This document shows, piece by piece, positions 2,260 through 64,000 of a DNA stretch of 64,000 nt (its first letter is position 1; the number at the start of each line of letters is the position of its first letter). The notes under the pieces are model-generated. The model was not told the origin of the DNA. It made no database searches and worked only from the letters and a program-made list of their open reading frames with translations. Made by a program: the position numbers and the translations under genes. The DNA is from Eledone cirrhosa (lineage: Eukaryota), in contig OZ024756.1 of NCBI GenBank assembly GCA_964016885.1, positions 27,962,001 to 28,026,000 on the forward strand, in the 5' to 3' direction.

Positions 2260-4430
2260 TTTATATTTAAACGTTGAGTTCAATCTATGTCTGCAGCAAC
2301 TGAAAAGATTGTTTCTTACGTTCACGGAATTTTTGCTTTTTAATATAAAGAATATTTCCTCTATACAAAGATGACAATTTTCGGAAGAGGAGTTAAATGG
2401 AGGCGCTTTTGAAATAATATTCCAAAGTAAAGAATATTTAATGTTCTTTGATTTAAGGTCCCATAATAAACTAGATAGAGAAGTTGAAGATTTTTTGTTT
2501 AAATTCGTAAAAGAGCATTTATGGTTATTAAAACGAGATTTAAAGTCTGTGGAAGTAGATCCTACATAATTAAATGAATTTAAATTAGTTTTTACATTAC
2601 AATTATATACTATATATTTTAGCTAAACAATTGTTATTTAACGGACAGTTAGATTTATTTCTACAGTTACATTTATCGAAATTCAAGTTACTAGAAGCTG
2701 TATTATTGAATTGGATATTGCTGGGGTTGTTAGTGGTATTTTGGTTAGGTTTTAAGTTTCTATTATTAATTCTATTAATATTCTGCGCTAAATTATTGGT
2801 GGTTGAATAAGTTAATTTTATAGTATGTCTATTAAATATTGAGTAATATCTATGTGTTCTAGGGAAGCATTTGTCAAGAGCTTTAAAGAATAGTTTAGCA
2901 ATAGGAGTTTTAATATTTAATGAGAAAGGAGGAGCAAACCATAATATATTCCTAGTTCTATTTCTTTTTTTGTTTTCCGAATTATTGTAATGTTTTCTAT
3001 TATAGTTGTTAAAATTGTTAAGATTATGGTTAGTTGTTATATTATTATTCTTATCAATGTATTTAATTTTATTTCTATATCCAACTCTACCTAACGCTTC
3101 GTTTTAATAATGTGCTTTATCATCAAATATATTCCTATTAGCTGAAATTCTAGAAATGCGTTGTTGTACGGAATTCACTATAGTATTTTTAACGGATCTG
3201 GGGTGATTAGAGTTAAAACGTAGTTTAAGTTCTCGTTTAATTTGTGAAATGGATAATGAAGACATGTGTTAAGGTTTAAGGTTACATCTAGAAAATTAAC
3301 TATTTTATGGTTATTCTCTATTTCTACTTTTAGATTAAGGTAATTAAAAAATTGTATAATTTCTTTTCTTTTCTTATTTAATTCACAGTTATTATTTTCG
3401 ATAAGTAATAGCATATCGTCACGATACAAACCTCCGGCCATCTCCGGTATTTTTCTATGTAGAGAATTATTTATAAAAAGCCCCACAATATCCGTTACCT
3501 GAGCGGAATCGGTTGACCCCATAATGATATCGAAATTATTATTTCTATCTGCTCTAGTCCAAAGTTGGTTGTTAAATTCAATTAATGTTTTCCGTGCCGT
3601 TAAGTCTGTATGTTGAAATGCATATGTTAGTGCTTTATTAAGTAGATTAGGAGTGATGGATGAGTAATAATTAGCAATATCCAATTGAATAAACTTATTA
3701 TTATAGTTATATTAATTTCTTTAAACCATTCGATAACTTCATTAGTTCCTTTCCATAATTTTAAATAAGATAATTCCTTAATTTGTAGTATTATTCTGTT
3801 TAAAATATTCTTGCTAAGTATGCCAAGGTCCGATTTAGATGGTGCAATCAATTTCAAAGTTCCTTTTGTGGTCCTTCATATTAATTTTTGGTTTCCTTGG
3901 CATGAAGGGTTGTGTCCTATTTTCAATGTCTAATTCATGCATTATATAAGAGGCATCTGTATTCAATTTTTCAAGGTCGTCATTAGTTGTTATTTTGTAT
4001 TTCTTCCTTAATTCCTTTAATATAAGATCGTTATAGATGTCCTTTTGTATTCCGTAAAGATTATTGGTTTTATCTGACTTGACTAGAATTTTTTCCGTTT
4101 TCTCAAGTTTTCAATATTATTTTTGATATTTCTTAGGTAATCCGAGCCTATAAAGTTTTTTTTTTTTTTTCATTTAATGCTTTGGATGATAGATATGATT
4201 TCGTTTTCAAAATCCATTAGTAGTTTGTTGGAAGGTGGTTTTTTTTTAGATTTGAAGATTTTATCAAGATTGGAAACATTCTCTTTTACATCAGATTTAT
4301 CGAAGTGGAAAGCACGCCACCTGATTCTTCTTATAAAAGAGTCTGATTTTTCTATTAATTGTTTAATAAAGTCTTTATTCCTAGGTATAGGTATGTCTTT
4401 TAGAGAAGAAGAGATCTTAAAAAATTTCAT
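2260..4430 (-). pseudogene. Frameshifted Penelope pol ORF (RT + GIY-YIG endonuclease)
   Basis: ORF-track fragments 4170-4430, 3627-3857 and 3178-3684 in different frames, plus GIY-YIG motifs read by hand at 2280-2680. The 3' end is approximate. Confidence 0.85.
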
Positions 4431-4613
4431 TATTTTTCAGTTATAATATAAAGCGCTCGACAGAAAAGGAGCAGAATATATGTAGAAGTTATATTTAATT
4501 TGTTGGGATACAGCAAGCAAATATTTTTATAACTGATATAAAGCACTCAACAAATTATTGGAGTAAAAATACGATATATTAACAAATGGAAACTATATTT
4601 ATAAAACCATATT

Positions 4614-4678
4614 TATTTCATTATACATATTTCAAGGACACCAAGTCAAATTATGGTGCGCTTTCATCAGACAAAATA
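4614..4678 (-). ncRNA. Type I hammerhead ribozyme (family A) in the 5' pLTR
   Basis: Same sequence as 593-657, located ~190 nt upstream of the pol ATG. Confidence 0.8.
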
Positions 4679-12513: not shown

Positions 12514-12789
12514 ATGACATCCATATATGAACTTAATGTTATGAGTTCACTGCGGATAGGGAATCTGTTACCTGAGCTGAATCAGACGAATCCATTGTGA
12601 TACGAAATTGTTCTCTCTATCAGCCCTAGTCCAGAGATTATTGTTACATTCAATAAAAGTTTTACGTGCAGTTAAAATAATGTTTATTTCTTCGCTAGAT
12701 AAGTCAGTGTGTTTCGATGCGTAAACTAGTGTTTTATTAAGTAGATTAGGAGTTATTGAAAAACACACTGACTTATCTATAAGAAATAA

Positions 12790-12896
12790 ACCCCGCCGAG
12801 GTTGACTTTGCCTTTCATCCTTACGGGGTCGATAAAATAAAGTACCAGTAATGCACTGGGTAATTGCTGGCCTTGTGCCTAAAGTAGAAACAATTA
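12790..12896 (+). mobile_element. 5'-truncated SINE
   Basis: CCCCGCCGAGGTTGACTTTGCCTTTCATCC...GTAGAAACAATTATT, inserted in the PLE RT region. Confidence 0.85.
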
Positions 12897-15422
12897 TTTT
12901 AACTGCACTATTGTCTGATTCAGCTCAAGTAACAGATTTGGTTGGAATATTCATTCTTAATGCATTACATAGGAAACTGCCGGAGATTGCCAGAGGTTTA
13001 TATCGCGATGATGAGTTGTTTATAGTTGATAAACATAACAATAGTGAATTTAGCAGAAAAAAGAAAATTATCATAGAATTTTTTAATAATTATAACGTTA
13101 AATTAGAAATAGAAAATGATAATAAAATTGTTAATTATTTAGACGCTACATTAAACCTTAACTCAGGCCTGTATTACCCCTTCCATAAGATTAATGAAAA
13201 CCTAAACTACGTCAGCTTCTACTCTAACCACCCTAGAAATGTTTAAAAAAAGCTATAGTCAATAGTGTCCAACAAAGAATATCTAGAATTTCAGCTAATA
13301 AAAATATATTTGATAACAAAGCGGAATATTACAACGACGCTCTACACAGAGCCGGATACAATAATAAAATTAATTACATAGATAAGAATAGCATACACCA
13401 ACATCCTAAAATTTACTATAATACTAATAATAAACAAATTAACCAAAATAATAAATCAAACAAAAAATCTAGAACTAGAAATATAATTTGGTATTCTCCT
13501 CCAATTTCTTTAGGAATTAAGACACCTTTAGAACACCAATTTTTTAAGGCTTTAGATAAATGTTTTCCTAAATCCCATAAATATCACTCTATTTTTAACA
13601 GACATACAATCAAACTCTCTTACTTTACTACTATGAATATAACACAAAATATTAATAGAATTAATAATAGGAATTTAAAATTAAACCCAACCAAATAAAC
13701 CCTAATAGCAATAACAATATTACTAATAACATTACATATGATAATAATAATAACCATACCGTTTCTCTAAACAACAACTCTAGAAAATGTAATTGCAGAA
13801 ATAAAATATCATGGCCTTTACAAATAATTGCCTAGATACAAATTTAGTATACAAATGCACCATAAAGACTAGAGATAGATTATATAATTATATAGGAGCT
13901 ACTTCTACAAAATTTAAGGACCGCTGGTATAATCATAAACATACGTTCAAACGATCGGACAAAAAATTCTCAACCTCACTATCACAATTAATTTGGTCTT
14001 TAAAAGACAATAGTACTAACTATTCGATCTCTTGGCGAAGGATATCGAAAGCGCCTGTTTACCAAAATATGGCTCTCTCAAGAATTTGTCATCTCTGTAT
14101 TGAAGAAATCTTTCATATAATTACCAATCCTAGTAATATCATAAACAAAATAGGAGATATTTAATTCTTGTTTGCATCGATTTTCCAGAACATTTAAAAA
14201 TATTTACAATTTATAGAAAATACTGTACATGGCCTGTATAAGTTTTAATGTTTTTAAAGGTGTTTTTAAAGGTTCTGAAAGGATTTTCTAAAAGTTTTTA
14301 TAAGTTTTTTTTTAATTTATACATACAAATACTTAATATTATCTCATTTATACATAGATATACTTATTGTTATCAAAATCTATACATAGAAAGTTTTATG
14401 TTTTTATTAATATCTTTAACATATTTACTATATGGTGTTCCGAAATCATATATAATTTTTACTTATATTGTAATTATAATATAAATTGTAATTAATTATT
14501 AGGTTAAACATTAGATCAAACTATATATCTTTAAAGAGTTTAAATTAATAAACATTAGAGTTATCTTTTCCTTTGATAAAACCTTGTTTACATTTCACCT
14601 ATACGAGACATTCAAACTTTACATAAATGTTTAAATGTTTAAATTTATATTTCTAACCTTATACAATAATAGATTATACATAATATTATACATCTTCTCT
14701 ATAAAAATATAATTATTTTCACATTCCTAAGCTATATATAGAAAATGCATAAATATCTTCGCTCGGCATATCCTAACTGTTTTCATAAGTAAACAAAATC
14801 TATATTCACGCGTAACTATTTATGTACTAAATAAATGTTTTAATAACGTTATACAATTAATCTCTTATACTAGAATACACTATATTCATAACTGCACTCA
14901 TCATAATATTGAAACATACCCGTAAAATACATCCAATAGTATATATAGATATAGAGAATCTTTCACATATTAAATTAATAGTTCTCATTTTAATACATTA
15001 ATTTATAGCTCTCACCTTAATATTATAAATACTTCCACATTATAAAATTAAATAAATAAAAATAAATATAATTATTTCATTCTTTCTATACCCATGTAAA
15101 TATGTTTGGATGTATATAAGCATATTTCTATAAATATTCCGAAAGTAACTTTAAATAAATTTTCCTTAATTTTAATAGCAAACCTCTTTTTTAAAAACAA
15201 TTTAGATAATTATTTAAAATATATCTAGCGTCTAAACTTAACGATCCTTTTCCGTTTTTACGTTATCCTCATTAGCATATTTATCCTGAGTTTTGAATAT
15301 TTATTCACTATCCGCAGTGAACTCATAACATTAAGTTTATATGCGGATATGTCATTATCTTTCAACCAAATATTGTATTTCATCTGACGAAAGCGTGCCA
15401 AAATACTGGTACCTTTGCAATA

Positions 15423-15986: not shown

Positions 15987-16707
15987 GTGGAACACTGGAA
16001 GGTAATATCCGTTCCGTAATGGTAGAGCACTCAGTCCAAGGGACGAGTTGGGTAGAAGTGGTTACACAACAGTTAGTTCACCATACCGAGAACAATTCTT
16101 TCATCTTCGCGTATCTTCAGCTCGGAATGGGCATGGTTATAGGAACAGGAAGGACAACCGTACGAACGCGCATGCGCAGAAACCCGGTCTCTTCACACAG
16201 GCAATACTAGACTGCTTTCGAGAGGTGTAAGGGAGATAACTGCGAAAGTCCGAAAAGTTTTTAGGTTGAAAATAAAATTACAAAGAATCAGTTCGGAGGC
16301 TTGTAGTTATGCAATAGGTTTTTGGCGACGTGTGGACAACGTGTGAAAAATTCACTTCTCGTGTTTAGGCAATCACTATTGCGTAATCTGTTTAGAATAG
16401 TTATTCGTTCGTCAATACATAAGCCACGCGTCGGATTTCCCCTTGCGTATGGCTTGGACTTAGTGATGACTTTCCATTGAATAGAGTAGTCTATACTTGA
16501 GTCCTTGAGGCACCATACGTGGCTCGCGAGTTTCGTGGGTGAACGTCTGTCCGGGTATCTGAAGGTAGACTGGTGGTTCAGGAAACGTTCCTTGAATCGG
16601 ACCTCCGCCATGCCCACATTGGATTTGACCTCCTGTGGTTCGTTTGGTCGGTTGGAAGTGACCACAGCTTCATAGATTACAGCTGGTGTGTTGCATTGCT
16701 GTTAAAG

Positions 16708-16806
<99 letters not shown>

Positions 16807-17197: not shown

Positions 17198-17374
17198 TAT
17201 ATAATAAAATAAATATGGTTTTATAAAGATATTTCCATTTATAAATATTATTGATATTATACTCCAGAAGAAACACTGTTGAGTGCTTCTAATCTGTTAT
17301 AAATTAACTTTGTTGAACAACCAATAAAAGAAATAGTTACATATATATATATATATACACGTATATATATACAA

Positions 17375-18765
17375 CTACAACAACAACAACACCAACAGCA
17401 GCAGCACCAACACCAACAACAGCAACACCATCACCAACAACAACACAACCACTACCAACAACAACAACACCAACAACAGAAACAACACAACACCAACACC
17501 ACCACCACCATCACCACCAACAATAACAACAACAACATCACCAACACCAACACCAACAACAGCAATACCACCACCAACAACAACACCAACGACAGCAACA
17601 TCACCACCATCAACAACAAAAACAACACCACCACCAACAACAACAACACCAACACTAACAACAGCAAACCACCACCACGAACACCAACACCAACAACAAC
17701 AACAACAACACCAACACAAACAACAACAGCAACAACAGCAACAGCACCACCAACAACACCACCAACAACACCACCAACAACAACACCACCACCAACACCA
17801 CTACCAACACCACCACTACCACCACCAACAACAACACCAACAACAGCAACAACAACAACACCACCACCAACACCACTACCAACACCACCACTACCACCAC
17901 CAACAACAACACCAACAACAGCAACAACAACAACACCAACACCAACAACACCACCAACACCAACAACAACAACACCAACAACACCAACAGCAGCACCACC
18001 AACAACAACAACAACCCCAACAACAACAGCAGCACCACCAACAACAACAACAACAACACCAACACCACCAACACCAACAACAACAACAATACCAACAACA
18101 ACAACAGCAGCACCACCAACAACAACAACAACATCAACACCAACAACAACAACAACAACAACAAGACCAAGAACAACACCAACAACAACACCAACAACAA
18201 CACCACCACCACCAACAACAACAACAACAGCAACAGCAACACCAACACCAACAACAGAAACACCACCACCACCACCACCAATACCAATAACAACAACACC
18301 AACAACAACACCACCACCACCACTAGCAACAACAACAACAACAACAACAGCAACACCAATACCAACACCAACAACAGCAACACCACCACCAATACCAATA
18401 ACAACAACACCAACAACAACACCACCACCACCACCAACAACAACAACACCAACAACAACACCACCACCACCAACAACAACAATACCAACACCAACACCAC
18501 CAACAACAACAACAACACCAACAACAACACCACCACCAACAACAACAACAACACCAACACCAACAACAACAACAACAACACCAACACCACCACCAATACC
18601 AACAACAACAACAACAACACCAACAACAACACTACCACCACCACCAACACCAACAACAACAACACCAACACCAACACCACCAGCAACAACAACAACAACA
18701 ACACCAACACCAACAACAACACTAGCAGCAACAACAACAGCAGCACCAACACCAACAACAACAAA
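17375..18765. repeat. 1.4-kb mosaic trinucleotide array (CAA/CAC/CAG)
   Basis: Continuous CAN-period repeat, which explains the poly-L/V ORFs. Confidence 0.95.
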
Positions 18766-21349: not shown

Positions 21350-21857
21350 CAGCAAACAACAGCAACACCACCACCACCACAAACAGCAACAACAACAACA
21401 ACACCAACACAACAACAACAACAACACCAACAACACCAACAACGACACCAATAACAACAACAACACCACCAACACCAACACCACCAACACCAACACCACC
21501 AACACCACCACCACCACCACCAACAACACCAACAACACCACCAACACCAACAACAACAACACCACCACCACCACCACCACCACCACTACCACCACCAACA
21601 ACAACAACAACTCCACCACCACCAACACCACCGCCACCAACAACAACAACAACAATAACTCCACCACCACCACCACCACCACCACCACCACCACCACCAC
21701 CACCACCGTCACCAACAACAGCAACACAGCCACCACCACCACCAACAACACCAACACCACCACCACCAACACCAACAACACCACCAACACCAACAACAAC
21801 AACACCACCACCAGCACCACCACCGACAACAACAACAACAACACCACCACCACCACC

Positions 21858-21889
<32 letters not shown>

Positions 21890-22412
21890 CAACAACTCCA
21901 CCACCACCAACACCAACAGCAACACCAACAGCAACAAAAGAAACACCACCACCACCACCACCACCACCACCGTCACCAACAACAGCAACACAGCCACCAC
22001 CAACAACAACAACACCAACACCACCAGCACTGGTCTGTTGGAGACGCAGGACATGGCAGCGATATTGAGGGACAGAGCCCGCTGGAGAGAACTCCTCCAT
22101 GGATCTCAGGAATTTTACCCGCGCTAGAAAAGAGAAAAATATCTACATGTATATATACTTGCGTATAATATCAATATACACACTACAAACGTTAGCAGAA
22201 AACCACCCGAAGTGGTGGTGGTGGTGGTGGTGGTGGTGGGGGTGGTGGTGGTGTTGTTGTTGGTGGTGGTGGTGTTGTTGTTGGTGGTGGTGGTGGTGGT
22301 AATGGTGGTGGTAATGGTGGTGGTGGTGTTGTTGTTGGTGGTGGTGGTGGTGGTAATGGTGTTGTTGGTGGTGGTGGTAATGGTGTTGTTGTTGTTGGTG
22401 GTGGTGGTGGTA
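21350..22412. repeat. (CAA/CAC)n array followed by an inverted (GGT/GTT)n array
   Basis: Low-complexity trinucleotide tracts at 21350-22026 and 22212-22412 surrounding a duplicate of 19526-19714. Confidence 0.9.
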
Positions 22413-26604: not shown

Positions 26605-27474
26605 TATATAAGATTGCGAAAATTAAACGAAAATCAAAGAGAATTCTACACAAAAAGAATCGGTATATTATATCGAAAATATACAGTAATTAAACGCTTG
26701 TTATTTTTAAAAAATGACGTTTTTTCTTTCAGAAATTCATCCTTCCTCAGAAAAATGAGAATTACTGTATCTATTTATGAAGCAATTCCACTTAACACAT
26801 AAATTTCATATGATATTCGATTGGAACCCAGTTTAAATAACATATTTTATAACTCATAATCTTCAATATAACATTACTACATCAAACTTTGACAATTTAT
26901 ATAACTATAGAAATATAAACAATCACGAATTTAGTTCTAGCTGTAATTGCAATAATAGGACAACTTCCTTTTGTCGTAGAAATTTCTCTGGAATGATATG
27001 GTTTATACATGTAAGGTGGCTACATCTTCATATAGTAAAGCTTACATAGGGTTAAAATTCATGAGATTCAAACAGAAAATATACATGCAATCTCATTCAT
27101 ATCGAGATCCTTTAAGAAGAAATATAACTTTACTTTCGACCTATATCTAGAGTTTGAAAGACAGAAACATCCGATATATGTTACATTTAGTGGCACTATC
27201 TAACGCTTCATCTTACAGCCTCTATAAAAACCTTGTGATCTTTGTGCTGTTGAAGGCTTAGATATATTCTACGCCAATGTATGTATTTGAAACAAAAAAT
27301 CTGAAATAGTTTTCACTATTAAACATAAACTATATAAACCTTTACTGTGTATTTCAGGCCAACATTTTATCCAAATAGATAAGACTAGTCTACAGCTCAA
27401 CAGAATACACATGATATACGTCATGATGCTATAGTTAACAATTATGTTATATTGGTTTTTATTATATTTTTAGT

Positions 27475-36282: not shown

Positions 36283-37409
36283 TATATAAGATTGCGAAAA
36301 TTAAACGAAAATCAAAGAGAATTCTACACAAAAAGAATCGGTATATTATATCGAAAATATACAGTAATTAAACGCTTGTTATTTTTAAAAAATGACGTTT
36401 TTTCTTTCAGAAATTCATCCTTCCTCAGAAAAATGAGAATTACTGTATCTATTTATGAAGCAATTCCACTTAACACATAAATTTCATATGATATTCGATT
36501 GGAACCCAGTTTAAATAACATATTTTATAACTCATAATCTTCAATATAACATTACTACATCAAACTTTGACAATTTATATAACTATAGAAATATAAACAA
36601 TCACGAATTTAGTTCTAGCTGTAATTGCAATAATAGGACAACTTCCTTTTGTCGTAGAAATTTCTCTGGAATGATATGGTTTATACATGTAAGGTGGCTA
36701 CATCTTCATATAGTAAAGCTTACATAGGGTTAAAATTCATGAGATTCAAACAGAAAATATACATGCAATCTCATTCATATCGAGATCCTTTAAGAAGAAA
36801 TATAACTTTACTTTCGACCTATATCTAGAGTTTGAAAGACAGAAACATCCGATATATGTTACATTTAGTGGCACTATCTAACGCTTCATCTTACAGCCTC
36901 TATAAAAACCTTGTGATCTTTGTGCTGTTGAAGGCTTAGATATATTCTACGCCAATGTATGTATTTGAAACAAAAAATCTGAAATAGTTTTCACTATTAA
37001 ACATAAACTATATAAACCTTTACTGTGTATTTCAGGCCAACATTTTATCCAAATAGATAAGACTAGTCTACAGCTCAACAGAATACACATGATATACGTC
37101 ATGATGCTATAGTTAACAATTATGTTATATAGGTTTTTATTATATTTTTAGTCGATAGAAGGCCGGACGCCATGCTTTGATGCATAGAGTTACGGCCCTT
37201 GTCATTCTGTGTTCAAATCCCGCCGAGGTTAACTTTCATCCTTACGGGGTCGATAAAATAAAGTGCCAGTAATGCACTGTGTAATTGCTGGCCTTGTGCC
37301 AAAAGTAGAAACAATTATGTTTTTATACTACATATTATTACACTAAATCACCCTTATAGGCGAATGTCTACGTAGAGATATGTATGACAACGAATAGCTT
37401 AGCATTACA

Positions 37410-47897: not shown

Positions 47898-50731
47898 TAT
47901 ATAAGATTGCGAAAATTAAACGAAAATCAAAGAGAATTCTACACAAAAAGAATCGGTATATTATATCGAAAATATACAGTAATTAAACGCTTGTTATTTT
48001 TAAAAAATGACGTTTTTTCTTTCAGAAATTCATCCTTCCTCAGAAAAATGAGAATTACTGTATCTATTTATGAAGCAATTCCACTTAACACATAAATTTC
48101 ATATGATATTCGATTGGAACCCAGTTTAAATAACATATTTTATAACTCATAATCTTCAATATAACATTACTACATCAAACTTTGACAATTTATATAACTA
48201 TAGAAATATAAACAATCACGAATTTAGTTCTAGCTGTAATTGCAATAATAGGACAACTTCCTTTTGTCGTAGAAATTTCTCTGGAATGATATGGTTTATA
48301 CATGTAAGGTGGCTACATCTTCATATAGTAAAGCTTACATAGGGTTAAAATTCATGAGATTCAAACAGAAAATATACATGCAATCTCATTCATATCGAGA
48401 TCCTTTAAGAAGAAATATAACTTTACTTTCGACCTATATCTAGAGTTTGAAAGACAGAAACATCCGATATATGTTACATTTAGTGGCACTATCTAACGCT
48501 TCATCTTACAGCCTCTATAAAAACCTTGTGATCTTTGTGCTGTTGAAGGCTTAGATATATTCTACGTCAATGTATGTATTTGAAACAAAAAATCTGAAAT
48601 AGTTTTCACTATTAAACATAAACTATATAAACCTTTACTGTGTATTTCAGGCCAACATTTTATCCAAATAGATAAGACTAGTCTACAGCTCAACAGAATA
48701 CACATGATATACGTCATGATGCTATAGTTAACAATTATGTTATATAGGTTTTTATTATATTTTTAGTCGATAGAAGGCCGGACGCCATGCTTTGATGCAT
48801 AGAGTTACGGCCCTTGTCATTCTGTGTTCAAATCCCGCCGAGGTTAACTTTCATCCTTACGGGGTCGATAAAATAAAGTGCCAGTAATGCACTGTGTAAT
48901 TGCTGGCCTTGTGCCAAAAGTAGAAACAATTATGTTTTTATACTACATATTATTACACTAAATCACCCTTATAGGCGAATGTCTACGTAGAGATATGTAT
49001 GACAACGAATAGCTTAGCATTACACCTTCTTCTTCTTCTCCTTCTCCTTCTCCTTCTTCTTATCCTTATTATTATTCTCCTTCATCTTCTTCTCCACGTT
49101 CTCCTTCTTCTCCCACTTATTCCGTAGAAGGTGGTGGTGACATGGATCTCAAACACTCCTTCCAGTCGGTCTTGGCAGAGACCACCATTTCCAACTGATA
49201 CGACGTGACCGGACAAGCTCATGGCTGTTCTCCAACTACCTTACTCGGGGTCTCCTGCCAGTTGGTTTTACCCGTTAAATCAGTCCAGCAATATTTTTCT
49301 AACATATTCTAACCATATGCCCATAGTATAGGAGCTGTGATCCCCCAATTCGGAAAAGTAGTGCCTCTATCTGGAGTGACTCTCTGATCTTCGATCTACG
49401 CACTGTATTAAGTAAAGTCCCAAATGATTGTTATTTTTTCAGTCTTAGTTATATTTTCTGTTCCTACCAGTTTTCTGCATGTTCTGCCTTGTATTTTATT
49501 CATATCATCCAGTGGATATATAGCCGCAGCATATCATGTCTACTCTTATATTCAGTGGGTTCTAGTGTGGGACATCCTCATATTATATGGTCAATTGTTT
49601 CAAGTTGTACTTACATATCCTGGAAATCCACTCCATTTCTTAGAATACTTGCTTGATAATTCCTAGTAAAGAGACTTCGTTCTTGGACAGCTAAACTGAA
49701 GCCTTCAGGTTCAGATGTTAATCCTAAAGGTCGTAACCACTGCTGTGTTTCTACTTAATCTATATCAGTATCTTGGGTGTGAGGTTGGAACAGGCCGAGC
49801 AGAGGATTTTGTTACCATCTATATCTAAATGTTCTTAGAACTTCTAGCTTACACTTGCTTCTATGGATTTATTTGCCTTAGTTGGAATTAGGTCAGCTTC
49901 ATTATTTAGGTGTATGTCTTCAGTTTTTAGTTATTTCCTCTAAAATCCTGCCTCTGCGTGTACTCAATGGGGTCGCTTTAAGATTTTGTGCTCTCTTACT
50001 AACACTATTATCCACTCCTTGCTGTTCCCTTGGTAGGTTTGTAATTGTATTGCAGCTACTTTGTATGACAGTTCCAGTTGGATTAGTCTCTTCGCCCTTC
50101 TTGTCTTGGCACACATAGGCGATCTACGTCTATCTTGGGGTGATGTATTTTGTTGGCTGTAATGTATTTACGAGTATTGGAGTCTATTCTTTAAAGATCA
50201 GATAAGTTTCATTTGATGATGTTATAACTATATCGTACCAATGGTTTCAAGATCTGATTTATACTTCTGTAATATTCTTTCCGTATTTTCTCCTTCAGTG
50301 TGTTTACTTCCATCATCTTCGTTTATGCCAAGATATATTGAGGTACATTGGTTGTATCTATATCGAGTTTAAAAGATGATACTTTTGTTAAATTCCTCTT
50401 TTATAACGATCCTTTAGTGCCTTTATCAAGACCAAATTACATGCCAATGTTATCGATACATTGCTTCACAGTTTTAGGTCATCCATAAAACACAAATGGT
50501 TAAAGATCTTCCTCTTACAAGGTATCTCAGGTTTTAGGTTCAAGATTGTTACAACTGTATAGTAAGGGAGCCGTTCCAATACTGACCTCTCCTCAGACAC
50601 CAGTTACGACGAATTTTTCCAATGTGTGAAATGTAATAAAATTTCTTTATTTTAAAACAGATCTTTTGAAATAGATTAAGTAATGTTTTTTTCTTAACAA
50701 TCTATGGATACCCTGCTATCGGACGCACACG

Positions 50732-57072: not shown

Positions 57073-57152
<80 letters not shown>

Positions 57153-57177
57153 TGCAATAAACAACATAAGGTAATTA

Positions 57178-57237
57178 TTTCATTTACCAGTGGTTTCTTG
57201 AAAGCAAACAAATTTTGCTTTCAATCGTCAAAACGAA
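57178..57237 (-). ncRNA. Type I hammerhead ribozyme (family B), core UUGACGA
   Basis: Tandem partner of 57667-57726, 489 bp away. Stem II is UUGAAAGCAAA/UUUGCUUUCAA. Confidence 0.65.
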
Positions 57238-57337
57238 AAAATCCTGGTGTATTTATTGACATTGGATTTTAAAAACAAAAATATAATCTATATGAAAGTA
57301 GGGCTGTAAAAGGAAGTAGGAATGGAAAAATAAACAC

Positions 57338-60199: not shown

Positions 60200-61285
60200 A
60201 GCTGGTTGAGTTATCATAGAAATGTCAATCCAGTTACAGATCAGATGTGATTTCAGATGAGGACAACATCTGAAGATCTCGGTCTTTGAGTTCAGGCAAG
60301 CAGAAGTGGCTTTCAAGTTTAGCAAAATCCTATATTTTTCTGTGGTACACAAAAAACAATTCTATGTGCCCCTTTGGTACTCCCTCGAATGGTCTAAAAT
60401 AGACCAATCGATAGAGTACGGGATGTTTTTATCCTTGAATTCCCATACCTTACTTGCGAGGGCCGTTGTTGTTCGTTTATCGGAGTGCTTAAAAGAAGCG
60501 ACATGTGCATAAAACCTGGTTTTAAACTTGTCCTGGGTCATGCCGACATATCTCTCACGCCTGGTGTTACTTTAGCCTCATAAACAACAGATTTCGTGTT
60601 ACATTTGCCCTGCAATGGGCATTCATCCAGCTTCCTGCAACTGCATCCTGGATTTGTTCTCGTATGATTTGAATTAGTGATCTTCGACTTCATAGATGGG
60701 CAACAAGAGTAACTGATCTTAACTACATTCCTATTAAATATCTTATAATATCTATGATTAGGAGGAAAATGTTTATCTAAGAGTTCAAGGAATTTCCTTC
60801 CTACATTAGTTTTGACGGTTAGAGAGAAGGGGGTGTAAACCAAATAATTTTCCTTTTCCTATTATTGTGGTTAGTTTTAGGGGGGTAGTAGGTAAATAAT
60901 AAATTTGTTCTGTAAAACCGCTGTTTTTAAGGGCTTTATTATAATAAGGGGCGGCTTTATTAAAAATGTCTATAGACGAAGATAAGGTAGAAATCCTACG
61001 GCTAATGTTGGGATTAAGATTATTAAAAACTATAGGGGCATGTCAAGACTGTATATACCTAAGATTTTCATTAGGTTTATGATAAGGTTTAAAAGAGGCG
61101 GTAAGTAGATCAAGATTAATATCAAGAAAGTTAGCATTGGTAAGGTTCGTATCTATAGTGATTTTAAGGTTAAGATTAGCAAAAGTATTGATTAAATCTT
61201 TACGGAATTTATCAAGGTTATGGCCGTTGGTGGTATGAGAAACAGCCAATCCGTCATCACGGTATAAACCGACGGAATTACTTCA
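60200..61285 (-). mobile_element. 5'-truncated Naiad-type Penelope element (RT C-terminus + GIY-YIG)
   Basis: VGLYRDDGLAV, FLDINLDL, FSLTVKTNVGRKFL, IFNRNVVKISYSC and CSCRKLDECPLQGKC...VVYEAKV. Frameshifted. Confidence 0.85.
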
Positions 61286-61579: not shown

Positions 61580-61696
61580 CAAGAAAATACATAAATATTA
61601 TATATATATATATATAAATAAAATTAAAAAGGTGAACGGGGTAAACAAATAGTTGGGAATACGGCAAATAATAAATAAATTCCGACGGAATTACTT

Positions 61697-61830
<134 letters not shown>

Positions 61831-62061
61831 GAAACACACAGATACATGCGGACACACACATATATACATGAATGCATCCGCACCCAACTGCGAGTTAAGG
61901 GTGCCAACTTCACCGATGTTGCTCAATGAATGACTGGGACAGACCAATTCAGTTTGAACCAGACTGAACCAGTATCAGAGTTAAAAATACATTATGAAGA
62001 GAGAAGAAACATTTAGATATAATTAGTAATAAAATGTATCATACCTAAACTGCTCCTAAAT

Positions 62062-62149
62062 TCCTCGACTACGTAGTTTCGTGGCATAAACAAAAACAAT
62101 ATATCAAAGATATAGAGTCCTTGCGAGGTCTGCCAACTTATCAAGAGGA
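62062..62149 (-). ncRNA. Variant hammerhead ribozyme (family H, U3-A8)
   Basis: Reverse complement of 63232-63319. Confidence 0.8.
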
Positions 62150-62652
62150 TACCTCATTTTACTAGTCTCAAGAACGCGTCTACACGACGTGAGAAAGAAT
62201 CCCAAAAGGCGGAGGGGGAGATAGTCACGCGATATAACGGTCGAGAAACAGAGCTAAGCCTCTTATAACCACAAAGAAAATACCACGGAGGCGGAGGGGG
62301 TATTCATATCGAGGCCGTAGAAGAGGTAGTGAAGAAGGCGAGAAGTACGAGTAATGGAAGCTTTCCAGTTGTCCCCACACTTCAAAGATTGCTCGACCAG
62401 AGGGAGTTATTAATATATTTAGAAACACACAGATACATGCGGACACACACATATATACATGAATGCATCCGCACCCAACTGCGAGTTAAGGGTGCCAACT
62501 TCACCGATGTTGCTCAATGAATGACTGGGACAGACCAATTCAGTTTGAACCAGACTGAACCAGTATCAGAGTTAAAAATACATTATGAAGAGAGAAGAAG
62601 CATTTAGATATAATTAGTAATAAAATGTATCATACCTAAACTGCTCCTAAAT

Positions 62653-62740
62653 TCCTCGACTACGTAGTTTCGTGGCATAAACAAAAACAATATATCAAAG
62701 ATATAGAGTCCTTGCGAGGTCTGCCAACTTATCAAGAGGA
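62653..62740 (-). ncRNA. Variant hammerhead ribozyme (family H, U3-A8)
   Basis: 591 bp from the previous copy, same sequence. Confidence 0.8.
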
Positions 62741-63231
62741 TACCTCATTTTACTAGTCTCAAGAACGCGTCTACACGACGTGAGAAAGAATCCCAAAAGG
62801 CGGAGGGGGAGATAGTCACGCGATATAACGGTTCAAACTGAATTGGTCTGTCCCAGTCATTCATTGAGCAACATCGGTGAAGTTGGCACCCTTAACTCGC
62901 AGTTGGGTGCGGATGCATTCATGTATATATGTGTGTGTCCGCATGTATCTGTGTGTTTCTAAATATATTAATAACTCCCTCTGGTCGAGCAATCTTTGAA
63001 GTGTGGGGACAACTGGAAAGCTTCCATTACTCGTACTTCTCGCCTTCTTCACTACCTCTTCTACGGCCTCGATATGAATACCCCCTCCGCCTCCGTGGTA
63101 TTTTCTTTGTGGTTATAAGAGGCTTAGCTCTGTTTCTCGACCGTTATATCGCGTGACTATCTCCCCCTCCGCCTTTTGGGATTCTTTCTCACGTCGTGTA
63201 GACGCGTTCTTGAGACTAGTAAAATGAGGTA

Positions 63232-63319
63232 TCCTCTTGATAAGTTGGCAGACCTCGCAAGGACTCTATATCTTTGATATATTGTTTTTGTTTATGCCAC
63301 GAAACTACGTAGTCGAGGA
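63232..63319 (+). ncRNA. Variant hammerhead ribozyme (family H, U3-A8)
   Basis: UCCUC-UUGAUAA-G.U.UGGCA[44-nt insert]UGCCA.C-GAAA-CUACGUAG-UC|GAGGA. Predicted cleavage after 63314. Confidence 0.8.
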
Positions 63320-63822
63320 ATTTAGGAGCAGTTTAGGTATGATACATTTTATTACTAATTATATCTAAATGTTTCTTCTCTCTTCATAATGTATTTTTAA
63401 CTCTGATACTGGTTCAGTCTGGTTCAAACTGAATTGGTCTGTCCCAGTCATTCATTGAGCAACATCGGTGAAGTTGGCACCCTTAACTCGCAGTTGGGTG
63501 CGGATGCATTCATGTATATATGTGTGTGTCCGCATGTATCTGTGTGTTTCTAAATATATTAATAACTCCCTCTGGTCGAGCAATCTTTGAAGTGTGGGGA
63601 CAACTGGAAAGCTTCCATTACTCGTACTTCTCGCCTTCTTCACTACCTCTTCTACGGCCTCGATATGAATACCCCCTCCGCCTCCGTGGTATTTTCTTTG
63701 TGGTTATAAGAGGCTTAGCTCTGTTTCTCGACCGTTATATCGCGTGACTATCTCCCCCTCCGCCTTTTGGGATTCTTTCTCACGTCGTGTAGACGCGTTC
63801 TTGAGACTAGTAAAATGAGGTA

Positions 63823-63910
63823 TCTTCTTGATAAGTTGGCAGACCTCGCAAGGACTCTATATCTTTGATATATTGTTTTTGTTTATGCCACGAAACTACG
63901 TAGTCGAGGA
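63823..63910 (+). ncRNA. Variant hammerhead ribozyme (family H, U3-A8)
   Basis: Stem I is UCUUC/GAGGA, where C-G becomes a U.G wobble and pairing is kept. Predicted cleavage after 63905. Confidence 0.8.
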
Positions 63911-64000
63911 ATTTAGGAGCAGTTTAGGTATGATACATTTTATTACTAATTATATCTAAATGTTTCTTCTCTCTTCATAATGTATTTTTAACTCTGATAC

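Follow-up and report, generated by a model that had tools for sequence, protein, structure and literature searches.

The 88 nt at 63232-63319 (+) of a 64,000-nt stretch of Eledone cirrhosa DNA, the whole of which is called the window here, raise two questions: whether they are a true hammerhead ribozyme, and what kind of element carries them. The window is AT-rich, animal-like DNA laden with microsatellites. The 88 nt are a type I hammerhead with a U3-A8 core and a GUC site, predicted to self-cleave (Table 1). The 3-8 pair, U4 G5 A6, A9, G12 A13 A14, A15.1-U16.1 and the H17 position (here C17) are all present, within three stems of 5, 6 and 3 Watson-Crick pairs of which stem I is open. Stem II is closed by G63244-C63300 and carries a single bulge at 63246. 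The predicted position of the cut (63314/63315) follows from hammerhead numbering. When the repeat unit that holds the motif was dinucleotide-shuffled 2000 times and the window block-shuffled 30 times, a descriptor accepting either a C3-G8 or a U3-A8 core, with a spacer of 8-80 nt between the core halves, matched nothing. The motif is therefore more than chance and can be considered real, its cleavage being predicted.

An earlier, sequence-only reading had given the core as UUGAUAA, with a 44-nt insert (63251-63294) and a palindrome at 63304-13, all of which were recovered at those coordinates; its statement that U3-A8 preserves the 3-8 pair of a hammerhead is likewise accepted. It had also expected standard CUGANGA motif searches to overlook it. 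Rfam indeed gave no match at gathering score across the 64,000-nt window and five weak, unrelated matches on 62800-63500, no hammerhead among them. The miss reflects a library cut-off and is no biochemical criterion: seven more hammerheads of the window, all with canonical cores, were missed too. Among the traits of hammerheads from Penelope-like elements (PLEs; Cervera 2014), the motif has G10.1-C11.1, a short stem I and a palindromic stem III, and lacks an unpaired nucleotide between A9 and 10.1; its bulge follows two stem II pairs, an arrangement shared with the D. virilis variant. Once stem III has its 3 bp, a 4-nt loop that is self-complementary arises by chance in about 6% of cases, so the palindrome alone is modest evidence.

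Table 1. Coordinates of the hammerhead at 63232-63319, of the repeat unit that contains it and of related features of the window.
Feature	Position	Strand	Remarks
GAGGU, 5' flank	63226-63230	+	Predicted pseudoknot partner of ACCUC 63252-56; 5/5 Watson-Crick
Stem I, 5' strand UCCUC	63232-63236	+	5/5 Watson-Crick with 3' strand
Core U3 U4 G5 A6 U7 A8 A9 (UUGAUAA)	63237-63243	+	
Stem II, 5' strand	63244-63250	+	G10.1 = 63244; bulge 63246
Internal loop 6x3, 5' side GACCUC	63251-63256	+	Holds predicted pseudoknot strand ACCUC; except for core pairings, left unpaired in the MFE of the 88-mer (constrained or free)
Long hairpin extending stem II	63257-63291	+	8 bp (3 G-U), 2x2 loop, 6 bp, UUU loop
Stem II, 3' strand ending C11.1, with internal-loop 3' side UUA	63292-63300	+	
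G12 A13 A14 (GAA)	63301-63303	+	
Stem III ACUACGUAGU	63304-63313	+	Perfect palindrome; monomer 3 bp + tetraloop, dimer 10 bp
C17	63314	+	Predicted cut between 63314 and 63315
Stem I, 3' strand GAGGA	63315-63319	+	5/5 Watson-Crick
591-bp repeat unit, first copy of plus arm	62830-63420	+	No ORF, no PLE protein match
Second unit of plus arm, ending at window end	63421-64000	+	Hammerhead copy 63823-63910
Inverted 5'-truncated arm	61822-62832	-	1011 nt, 1.7 units; hammerheads 62653-62740 and 62062-62149
(TA)n tract holding the inverted arm's 3' end	61700-61827	.	6 nt shared with element end
Decayed 5'-truncated PLE ORF, neighbour	60200-61282	-	YRDD, CxCX5C linker, GIY-YIG; stops and frameshifts
PLE ORF remnants	2284-4481(-), 12604-14161, 16294-16710(-), 26980-27329, 36658-37007, 48273-48622, 60200-61282(-)		tblastn
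Second hammerhead family, six type I motifs (first core base)	649(-), 4670(-), 11150(-), 11673(+), 12382(-), 58877(-)		
Third hammerhead family	57719	-	Canonical core, 10-bp stem II, stem III ACCACUGGU

The interior of stem II had been drawn as two sub-hairpins. The second of these stands (UAUAUC/GAUAUA paired with p 0.98-1.0), whereas CCU-CGCA-AGG has p=0.000 with or without enforced hammerhead stems. According to the folding model, the 44-nt insert is one hairpin that continues stem II, with pair probabilities of 0.96-1.0; the single long hairpin has an energy of -20.7 kcal/mol, compared with -11.3 kcal/mol (9.4 worse) for the fold with two sub-hairpins. The insert's own MFE of -11.0 was equalled in stability by 1 of 1000 shuffles. 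ACCUC in the internal loop can be matched with GAGGU, which ends one base 5' of stem I. A complement of that kind in a 10-nt flank is expected by chance in about 1% of cases; the match was noticed in hindsight, and stem I has strands similar to the two involved. Neither the window copies nor sequencing run X1 (see below) show variation in these strands that could serve for covariation. An ACCUC/GAGGU pseudoknot that would dock stems I and II is predicted.

The second question is what element the hammerhead belongs to. The window holds four copies of the motif, one per unit and all U3-A8, in two arms that share a 591-bp period; arms and units are 99.8% identical, and one site in each differs from the first unit. 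The sole change among the window's hammerhead copies is a C>U at 63825, in the copy at 63823-63910, which turns a stem I C-G pair into U-G. The inverted arm starts mid-unit and terminates in (TA)n, and the two arms meet at 62830-32 with 3 nt of microhomology. Tandem copies, an inverted 5'-truncated copy and a microsatellite target are thus found together, as in a PLE-type insertion, a retroelement context that was absent from the sequence-only reading; an inverted 5'-truncated copy and (TA)n targeting are given as PLE hallmarks in PMC8557442. The unit also has the properties of a non-LTR retrozyme: it is a non-coding tandem repeat with one type I hammerhead per unit, its GC content is 0.41 (below 50%), and its monomer is self-paired (63% paired vs 60% in shuffles). 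Folded as a circle, the hammerhead strand is unusually stable (z=-4.5 to -4.9; 0/40 shuffles as stable), whereas the other strand is not (z=-0.6; 12/40). A tblastn search with 33 PLE-type proteins gave no matches in 61800-64000, and the same interval holds no RT + GIY-YIG ORF; the plus arm continues past the window end.

The unit is probably, with some room for doubt, a young non-autonomous PLE partner, that is, a non-LTR retrozyme with a type I hammerhead once per 591-bp non-coding unit. Points against this reading include that the plus arm exits the window, that the active fold is disfavoured in folding models, and that the size exceeds the 150-450 bp given in PMC7229834. It has also been considered whether the locus is a satellite or an assembly fold-back with a chance hammerhead-like string. 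Inverted arms that are 99.8% identical are what such an artefact would produce, but the 0/2000 shuffles, the strand-specific folding and the presence in independent contigs of the head-to-tail joint, the (TA)n end and another inversion joint largely refute this explanation, which is very improbable.

These contigs come from public sequencing runs. Part of the unit is contained in 20 of the 24 runs listed, with no RNA run listed among them, and at least half of its words in 13 of the 24 listed rows (10 organism codes, 9 studies); four runs (X1, X14, X17 and X22) were compared in detail. The unit is covered in 30/30 bins by 1663 contigs of X1, with the head-to-tail joint and at very high depth (1e5-5e5). 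The best-supported loose ends among those listed for X1 are (TA)n at 62968 (10 contigs) and at 63394 (7), the former in the same phase as the window's (TA)n end. Summed contig depth, which is no measure of copy number, drops 2.8-fold in X1 just past 62968, as expected for a preferred start of reverse transcription with 5' truncation. The X1 ends at 63394 and at 62968+591 are 165 nt apart, a distance looked at for the optional PLE tail of 30-40 bp; the other end of the insertion is outside the window. Joint and (TA)n end are both repeated in X14, and X17 has a different, opposite-strand (inversion) joint, each run at a depth of 4-6. The raw reads of X22 (1.9 Gb), which shares its organism code with X9, another run listed with the unit, include five hits, all less than 90% alike and on a simple-repeat stretch, and no true match. 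Horizontal transfer between species was considered, but depth is 4-6 in X14 and X17 against 1e5-5e5 in X1, and X22 gives no true match; carry-over of a very abundant repeat is an equally likely source of the trace depth in X14 and X17, and spread between species is therefore not claimed. A metagenome scan with a pattern left free at positions 3 and 8 returned 16 loci, none with stem I plus element sequence and all of them set aside as chance. The exact motifs had no match in viral contigs and none in genome contigs, and the PLE protein P0022 had no relatives among 7 and 66 candidates.

Twelve of the 17 listed variable sites in X1 were kept, and five at 62937-62949 were dropped because unrelated simple-repeat reads show them too. 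The sequence-only reading had named free variation of the core across copies as evidence against itself. None was found at >=3% in X1 over the 21 positions of core and stem III, an absence that is uninformative with 12 variable sites in 591 nt (p=0.65 by chance). Two variants fall inside 63226-63319, on the bulge and on a hairpin loop, both among the 13 free positions of these 94 (p=0.018); the bulge base 63246 is U in the window and C in 94% of depth in X1. Covariation had been taken earlier to point to selection; since all four window copies are U3-A8, positions 3 and 8 are invariant and selection cannot be inferred from these copies. As a separate observation, CCCTCCGCC occurs twice per unit (63083-63091 and 63165-63173), and a contig of run X17 retains 63072-63104 with 2 differences inside diverged flanks; this may be a sign that a related family has conserved a promoter or protein-binding motif.

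The main rival as to the element is that the unit is the pseudo-LTR (pLTR) of an autonomous PLE with its ORF beyond 64000, the hammerhead then processing the PLE transcript. In the textbook arrangement of a PLE, tandem pLTRs follow an inverted truncated copy. U3-A8 cores are described in PLE pLTRs (PMC4209133), and G10.1-C11.1 together with 10-nt palindromes (acag-ta-ctgt) in Hydra-clade PLE hammerheads (PMC8557442 supplement S2). In addition, an 81-nt stretch of the form GT...CTAAT...pyrimidines...AG (63337-63417) follows the cut site, where Penelope has a 5'-UTR intron. However, the unit contains no ORF end, an identical 591 nt is repeated in both arms, and X1 depth spans the whole unit, its best-supported loose ends among those listed being (TA)n and no coding sequence; an autonomous pLTR is therefore considered unlikely. 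The 81-nt stretch is intron-like in its GTATGA, CTAAT, pyrimidine tract and TTCAG, starts 22 nt after the predicted cut and forms a strong hairpin in its 5' part; it is similar in place and size to the 75-bp intron of Penelope.

PLE ORF remnants occur at about eight places in the window (tblastn, 33 relatives), and no sequence link beyond simple repeats was found between these and the unit. Kinship with the nearest, the decayed ORF at 60200-61282, was examined and rejected, as the two have no sequence in common beyond simple repeats; that ORF is probably a separate insertion. Its CxCX5C linker characterises the Hydra clade of PLEs (PMC8557442). A 17-bp exact direct repeat lies at 61269-61285, the 5' break of the decayed PLE, and at 61682-61698, just before the (TA)n; it could have arisen as a target duplication or through duplication of a short PLE end. 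The other hammerheads of the window belong to two families. Those of the second have a C3-G8 core, an 8-bp stem I and an AU-only palindromic stem III, and their stem II differs in sequence between copies yet stays paired. The identical hammerheads at 4670 and 649 flank the decayed PLE ORF 4481-2284(-) and are thus likely to be its pLTR motifs. The third family has related stretches at 57111-57306 and 187-386. Elsewhere, about 23400-55700 is occupied by a tandem array of three to four units, each about 10-11.5 kb long and 95-97% identical. In three of the units there is an open frame of 199 codons, rich in Cys (33408, 43628, 54930), for which Pfam gave no match; these frames resemble the C-terminal C4 domains of short-chain collagens. 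Long imperfect trinucleotide arrays (ACA, CAC, GTG) lie at 17371-18764 and 21366-22411.

For a retrozyme mobilised by PLEs, the following cycle can be proposed. A multimeric transcript through the tandem units would be cut after C63314 in each, which would yield 591-nt monomers, and these may circularise. Circularisation of such monomers has precedents in coral, mussel and axolotl retrozymes (PMC7229834). A PLE RT-GIY-YIG protein, supplied in trans, would nick both strands of (TA)n, and reverse transcription from a preferred start (unit position 62968) would give tandem cDNAs whose truncated 5' ends would join head-to-head, leaving two arms with outward 3' ends. The PAc protein of Anolis nicks and extends both strands of AT-rich DNA and starts internally (PMC11167929); such two-strand nicking and extension would explain the outward 3' ends and the joined, truncated 5' ends of the arms. 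Within the ribozyme, the long stem II would present ACCUC in its internal loop for pairing with GAGGU upstream of stem I, and the resulting pseudoknot would bring stems I and II together and release stem I from a fold-back hairpin. A monomer may then cleave, the 10-bp dimer being a second route.

Folding energetics bear on whether the hammerhead is active. The active fold accounts for 0.4% of the isolated 88-mer, or 1.7% if the bulge carries the base that predominates in X1 (pseudoknot-free); with flanks it lies at +3 to +8 kcal/mol in the pseudoknot-free model, and in the tandem transcript at +8.9 kcal/mol for one monomer and +14.7 kcal/mol for the cis dimer. In all contexts computed, pseudoknot-free models therefore predict a ground state other than the active fold, although nearest-neighbour models leave out tertiary and pseudoknot contacts, which stabilise hammerheads. 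It is accordingly conceivable, if rather doubtful, that the hammerhead is a slow or inactive passenger, that the element spreads as unprocessed RNA and that the long stem II is a protein-binding or folding element and no catalytic aid, a reading compatible with a retrozyme as well as with a pLTR. Besides the energies in every computed context, it can appeal to PAc hammerhead mutants, which insert normally in vitro, with no reads ending at the site (PMC11167929), and to Xenopus, where 8/9 predicted retrozyme dimers failed to cleave. Published PLE hammerheads are slow, and one of them depends on the PLE protein, while insertion in vitro proceeds without it (PMC11167929). The idea of a passenger is opposed by the intact core positions, three stems and GUC site, by the observed variants, which avoid paired and core positions, and by the stabilising tertiary and pseudoknot contacts that the folding models omit.

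The palindrome does permit a dimer, as had been claimed: a two-strand fold has -57.3 kcal/mol, compared with -41.4 kcal/mol for two monomers. The sequence-only reading went further and proposed that adjacent units activate each other; in its strict form, cleavage would occur only by two adjacent units paired via the 10-bp palindrome. That isolated dimers lie 15.9 kcal/mol below two monomers and that the cis dimer is still 3 kcal/mol better than two monomers in tandem context fits this proposal, and dimer dependence has been published for newt, axolotl and PLE motifs. Against an obligate dimer, a 3-bp stem III with a tetraloop exceeds the 1-2 bp helices that need dimers, and PMC8557442 counts Hydra-type motifs with 4+2 palindromes among the canonical ones. 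Mutual activation is possible, but for the 1011-nt tandem transcript a pseudoknot-free model gives p=0.000 for pairing between the two palindromes. An obligate dimer is thus improbable; from these models, dimerisation appears feasible and not evidently required.

A more specific reading of stem II is tentative and less likely than not. The extension may be a built-in switch in which four GAGG/CCUC strands form two alternative pairings. The hammerhead would then be a fast U3-A8 form, competent as a monomer, and its host element a young parasite of PLEs, present in high copy number, in which priming on two strands of (TA)n has left its record. The active state would combine stem I with the 5-bp pseudoknot between internal loop and 5' flank, and in the inactive state the 5' flank would lie on stem I while its 3' strand would be held by a downstream hairpin. 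In the pseudoknot-free model, GAGG can pair back onto the 5' strand of stem I to form an inactive hairpin (p=0.87-0.90), and when flanks are included a hairpin downstream captures GAGGA if no pseudoknot is formed.

Several known systems resemble the Eledone motif. The motif had been called an unusual variant, a description that does not survive, as both the U3-A8 core and the palindromic stem III are already published (PMC4209133, PMC3088659). About 1,300 U3-A8 motifs occur in Schistosoma PLEs and a palindromic helix III is a general trait of PLE motifs (PMC4209133), and Aedes offers a natural U3-A8 core and a 10-bp dimer stem (PMC3088659). The Cercyon PLE hammerheads of Schistosoma mansoni (Cervera and de la Pena 2014, PMC4209133) share type I topology, U3-A8, G10.1-C11.1, a stem I of 4-5 bp and a palindromic 15.2-16.2 region, and they too occur in pairs 100-700 bp apart on opposite strands. 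They differ in having little or no helix III and a helix II of 7-8 bp; in the motif at 63232-63319, stem III has 3 bp and ends in a tetraloop, the stem II domain spans 57 nt, and a pseudoknot is predicted. Metazoan non-LTR retrozymes are alike in being non-coding tandem repeats with <50% GC, one type I hammerhead per unit, self-paired RNA and co-occurrence with PLEs (PMC7229834; bioRxiv 10.64898/2026.07.22.740005). The retrozymes of 2020 are 150-450 bp long and have canonical cores (PMC7229834), whereas the Eledone unit is 591 bp long and has U3-A8, and its circular RNA is putative; unlike them, it bears a clear PLE insertion signature (inverted arm, fixed (TA)n end). A length of 591 nt falls inside the 51-972 bp of tandem hammerhead repeats related to pLTRs (bioRxiv 10.64898/2026.07.22.740005).

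Hydra-clade and PLE-X1 hammerheads (Craig et al. 2021, PMC8557442) share (TA)n targeting and the G...C base of stem II. Within that set, Penelope-1_SK has a 10-nt palindromic stem III and two spike-moss PLE-X1 motifs have a loop 2 of about 30 nt. In supplement S2, by contrast, all rows are C3-G8 and the Hydra rows have a loop 2 of 3-10 nt, and the hammerheads of that paper are located at the 3' end of the ORF. A link to Naiad is not supported: six motifs searched in the Craig supplement gave no stem II or stem III match, and a 9-mer near the Naiad_Parc start, on the opposite strand, is taken as chance. In about 40% of hammerhead representatives, stems I and II are docked by a pseudoknot (Perreault et al. 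2011, PMC3088659). These pseudoknots resemble the one predicted here in that a loop pairs over 4-6 bp with the sequence flanking the other stem, and that paper also reports natural U3-A8 cores; in Eledone, by contrast, the strand lies in the internal loop of an extended stem II of an animal repeat, and the pseudoknot is predicted. The descriptor of Craig et al. allowed 7-17 nt from one core half to the other (PMC8557442), and the Eledone motif has 57; forms with a long stem II escape both Rfam and short-spacer descriptors and may therefore be undercounted.

Judged against these systems, the headline features of the sequence-only reading, U3-A8 and the palindromic stem III, are known and, as it stated them, ordinary. 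What looks new is only the long stem II with its predicted pseudoknot. Dimeric PLE hammerheads are reportedly the subject of Lunse et al. 2017, which may already contain similar variants. Neither the combination of U3-A8, a long stem II and a pseudoknot nor a pseudoknotted, self-regulating architecture for animal PLE-type hammerheads was found in the literature searched.

For the biology of these elements, the locus matters in two ways. It joins a retrozyme-like repeat with marks of PLE integration (a fixed (TA)n 3' end and an inverted truncated arm), a combination that supports the proposal that PLE proteins mobilise animal retrozymes, and it supplies a defined substrate for that proposal. 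Most animal hammerheads of the PLE type are minimal forms that cleave slowly, and a pseudoknot-docked version, if true, would be another way for them to work. If the stem II extension is indeed a switch, the ribozyme would cut during transcription and be silenced in the finished circle.
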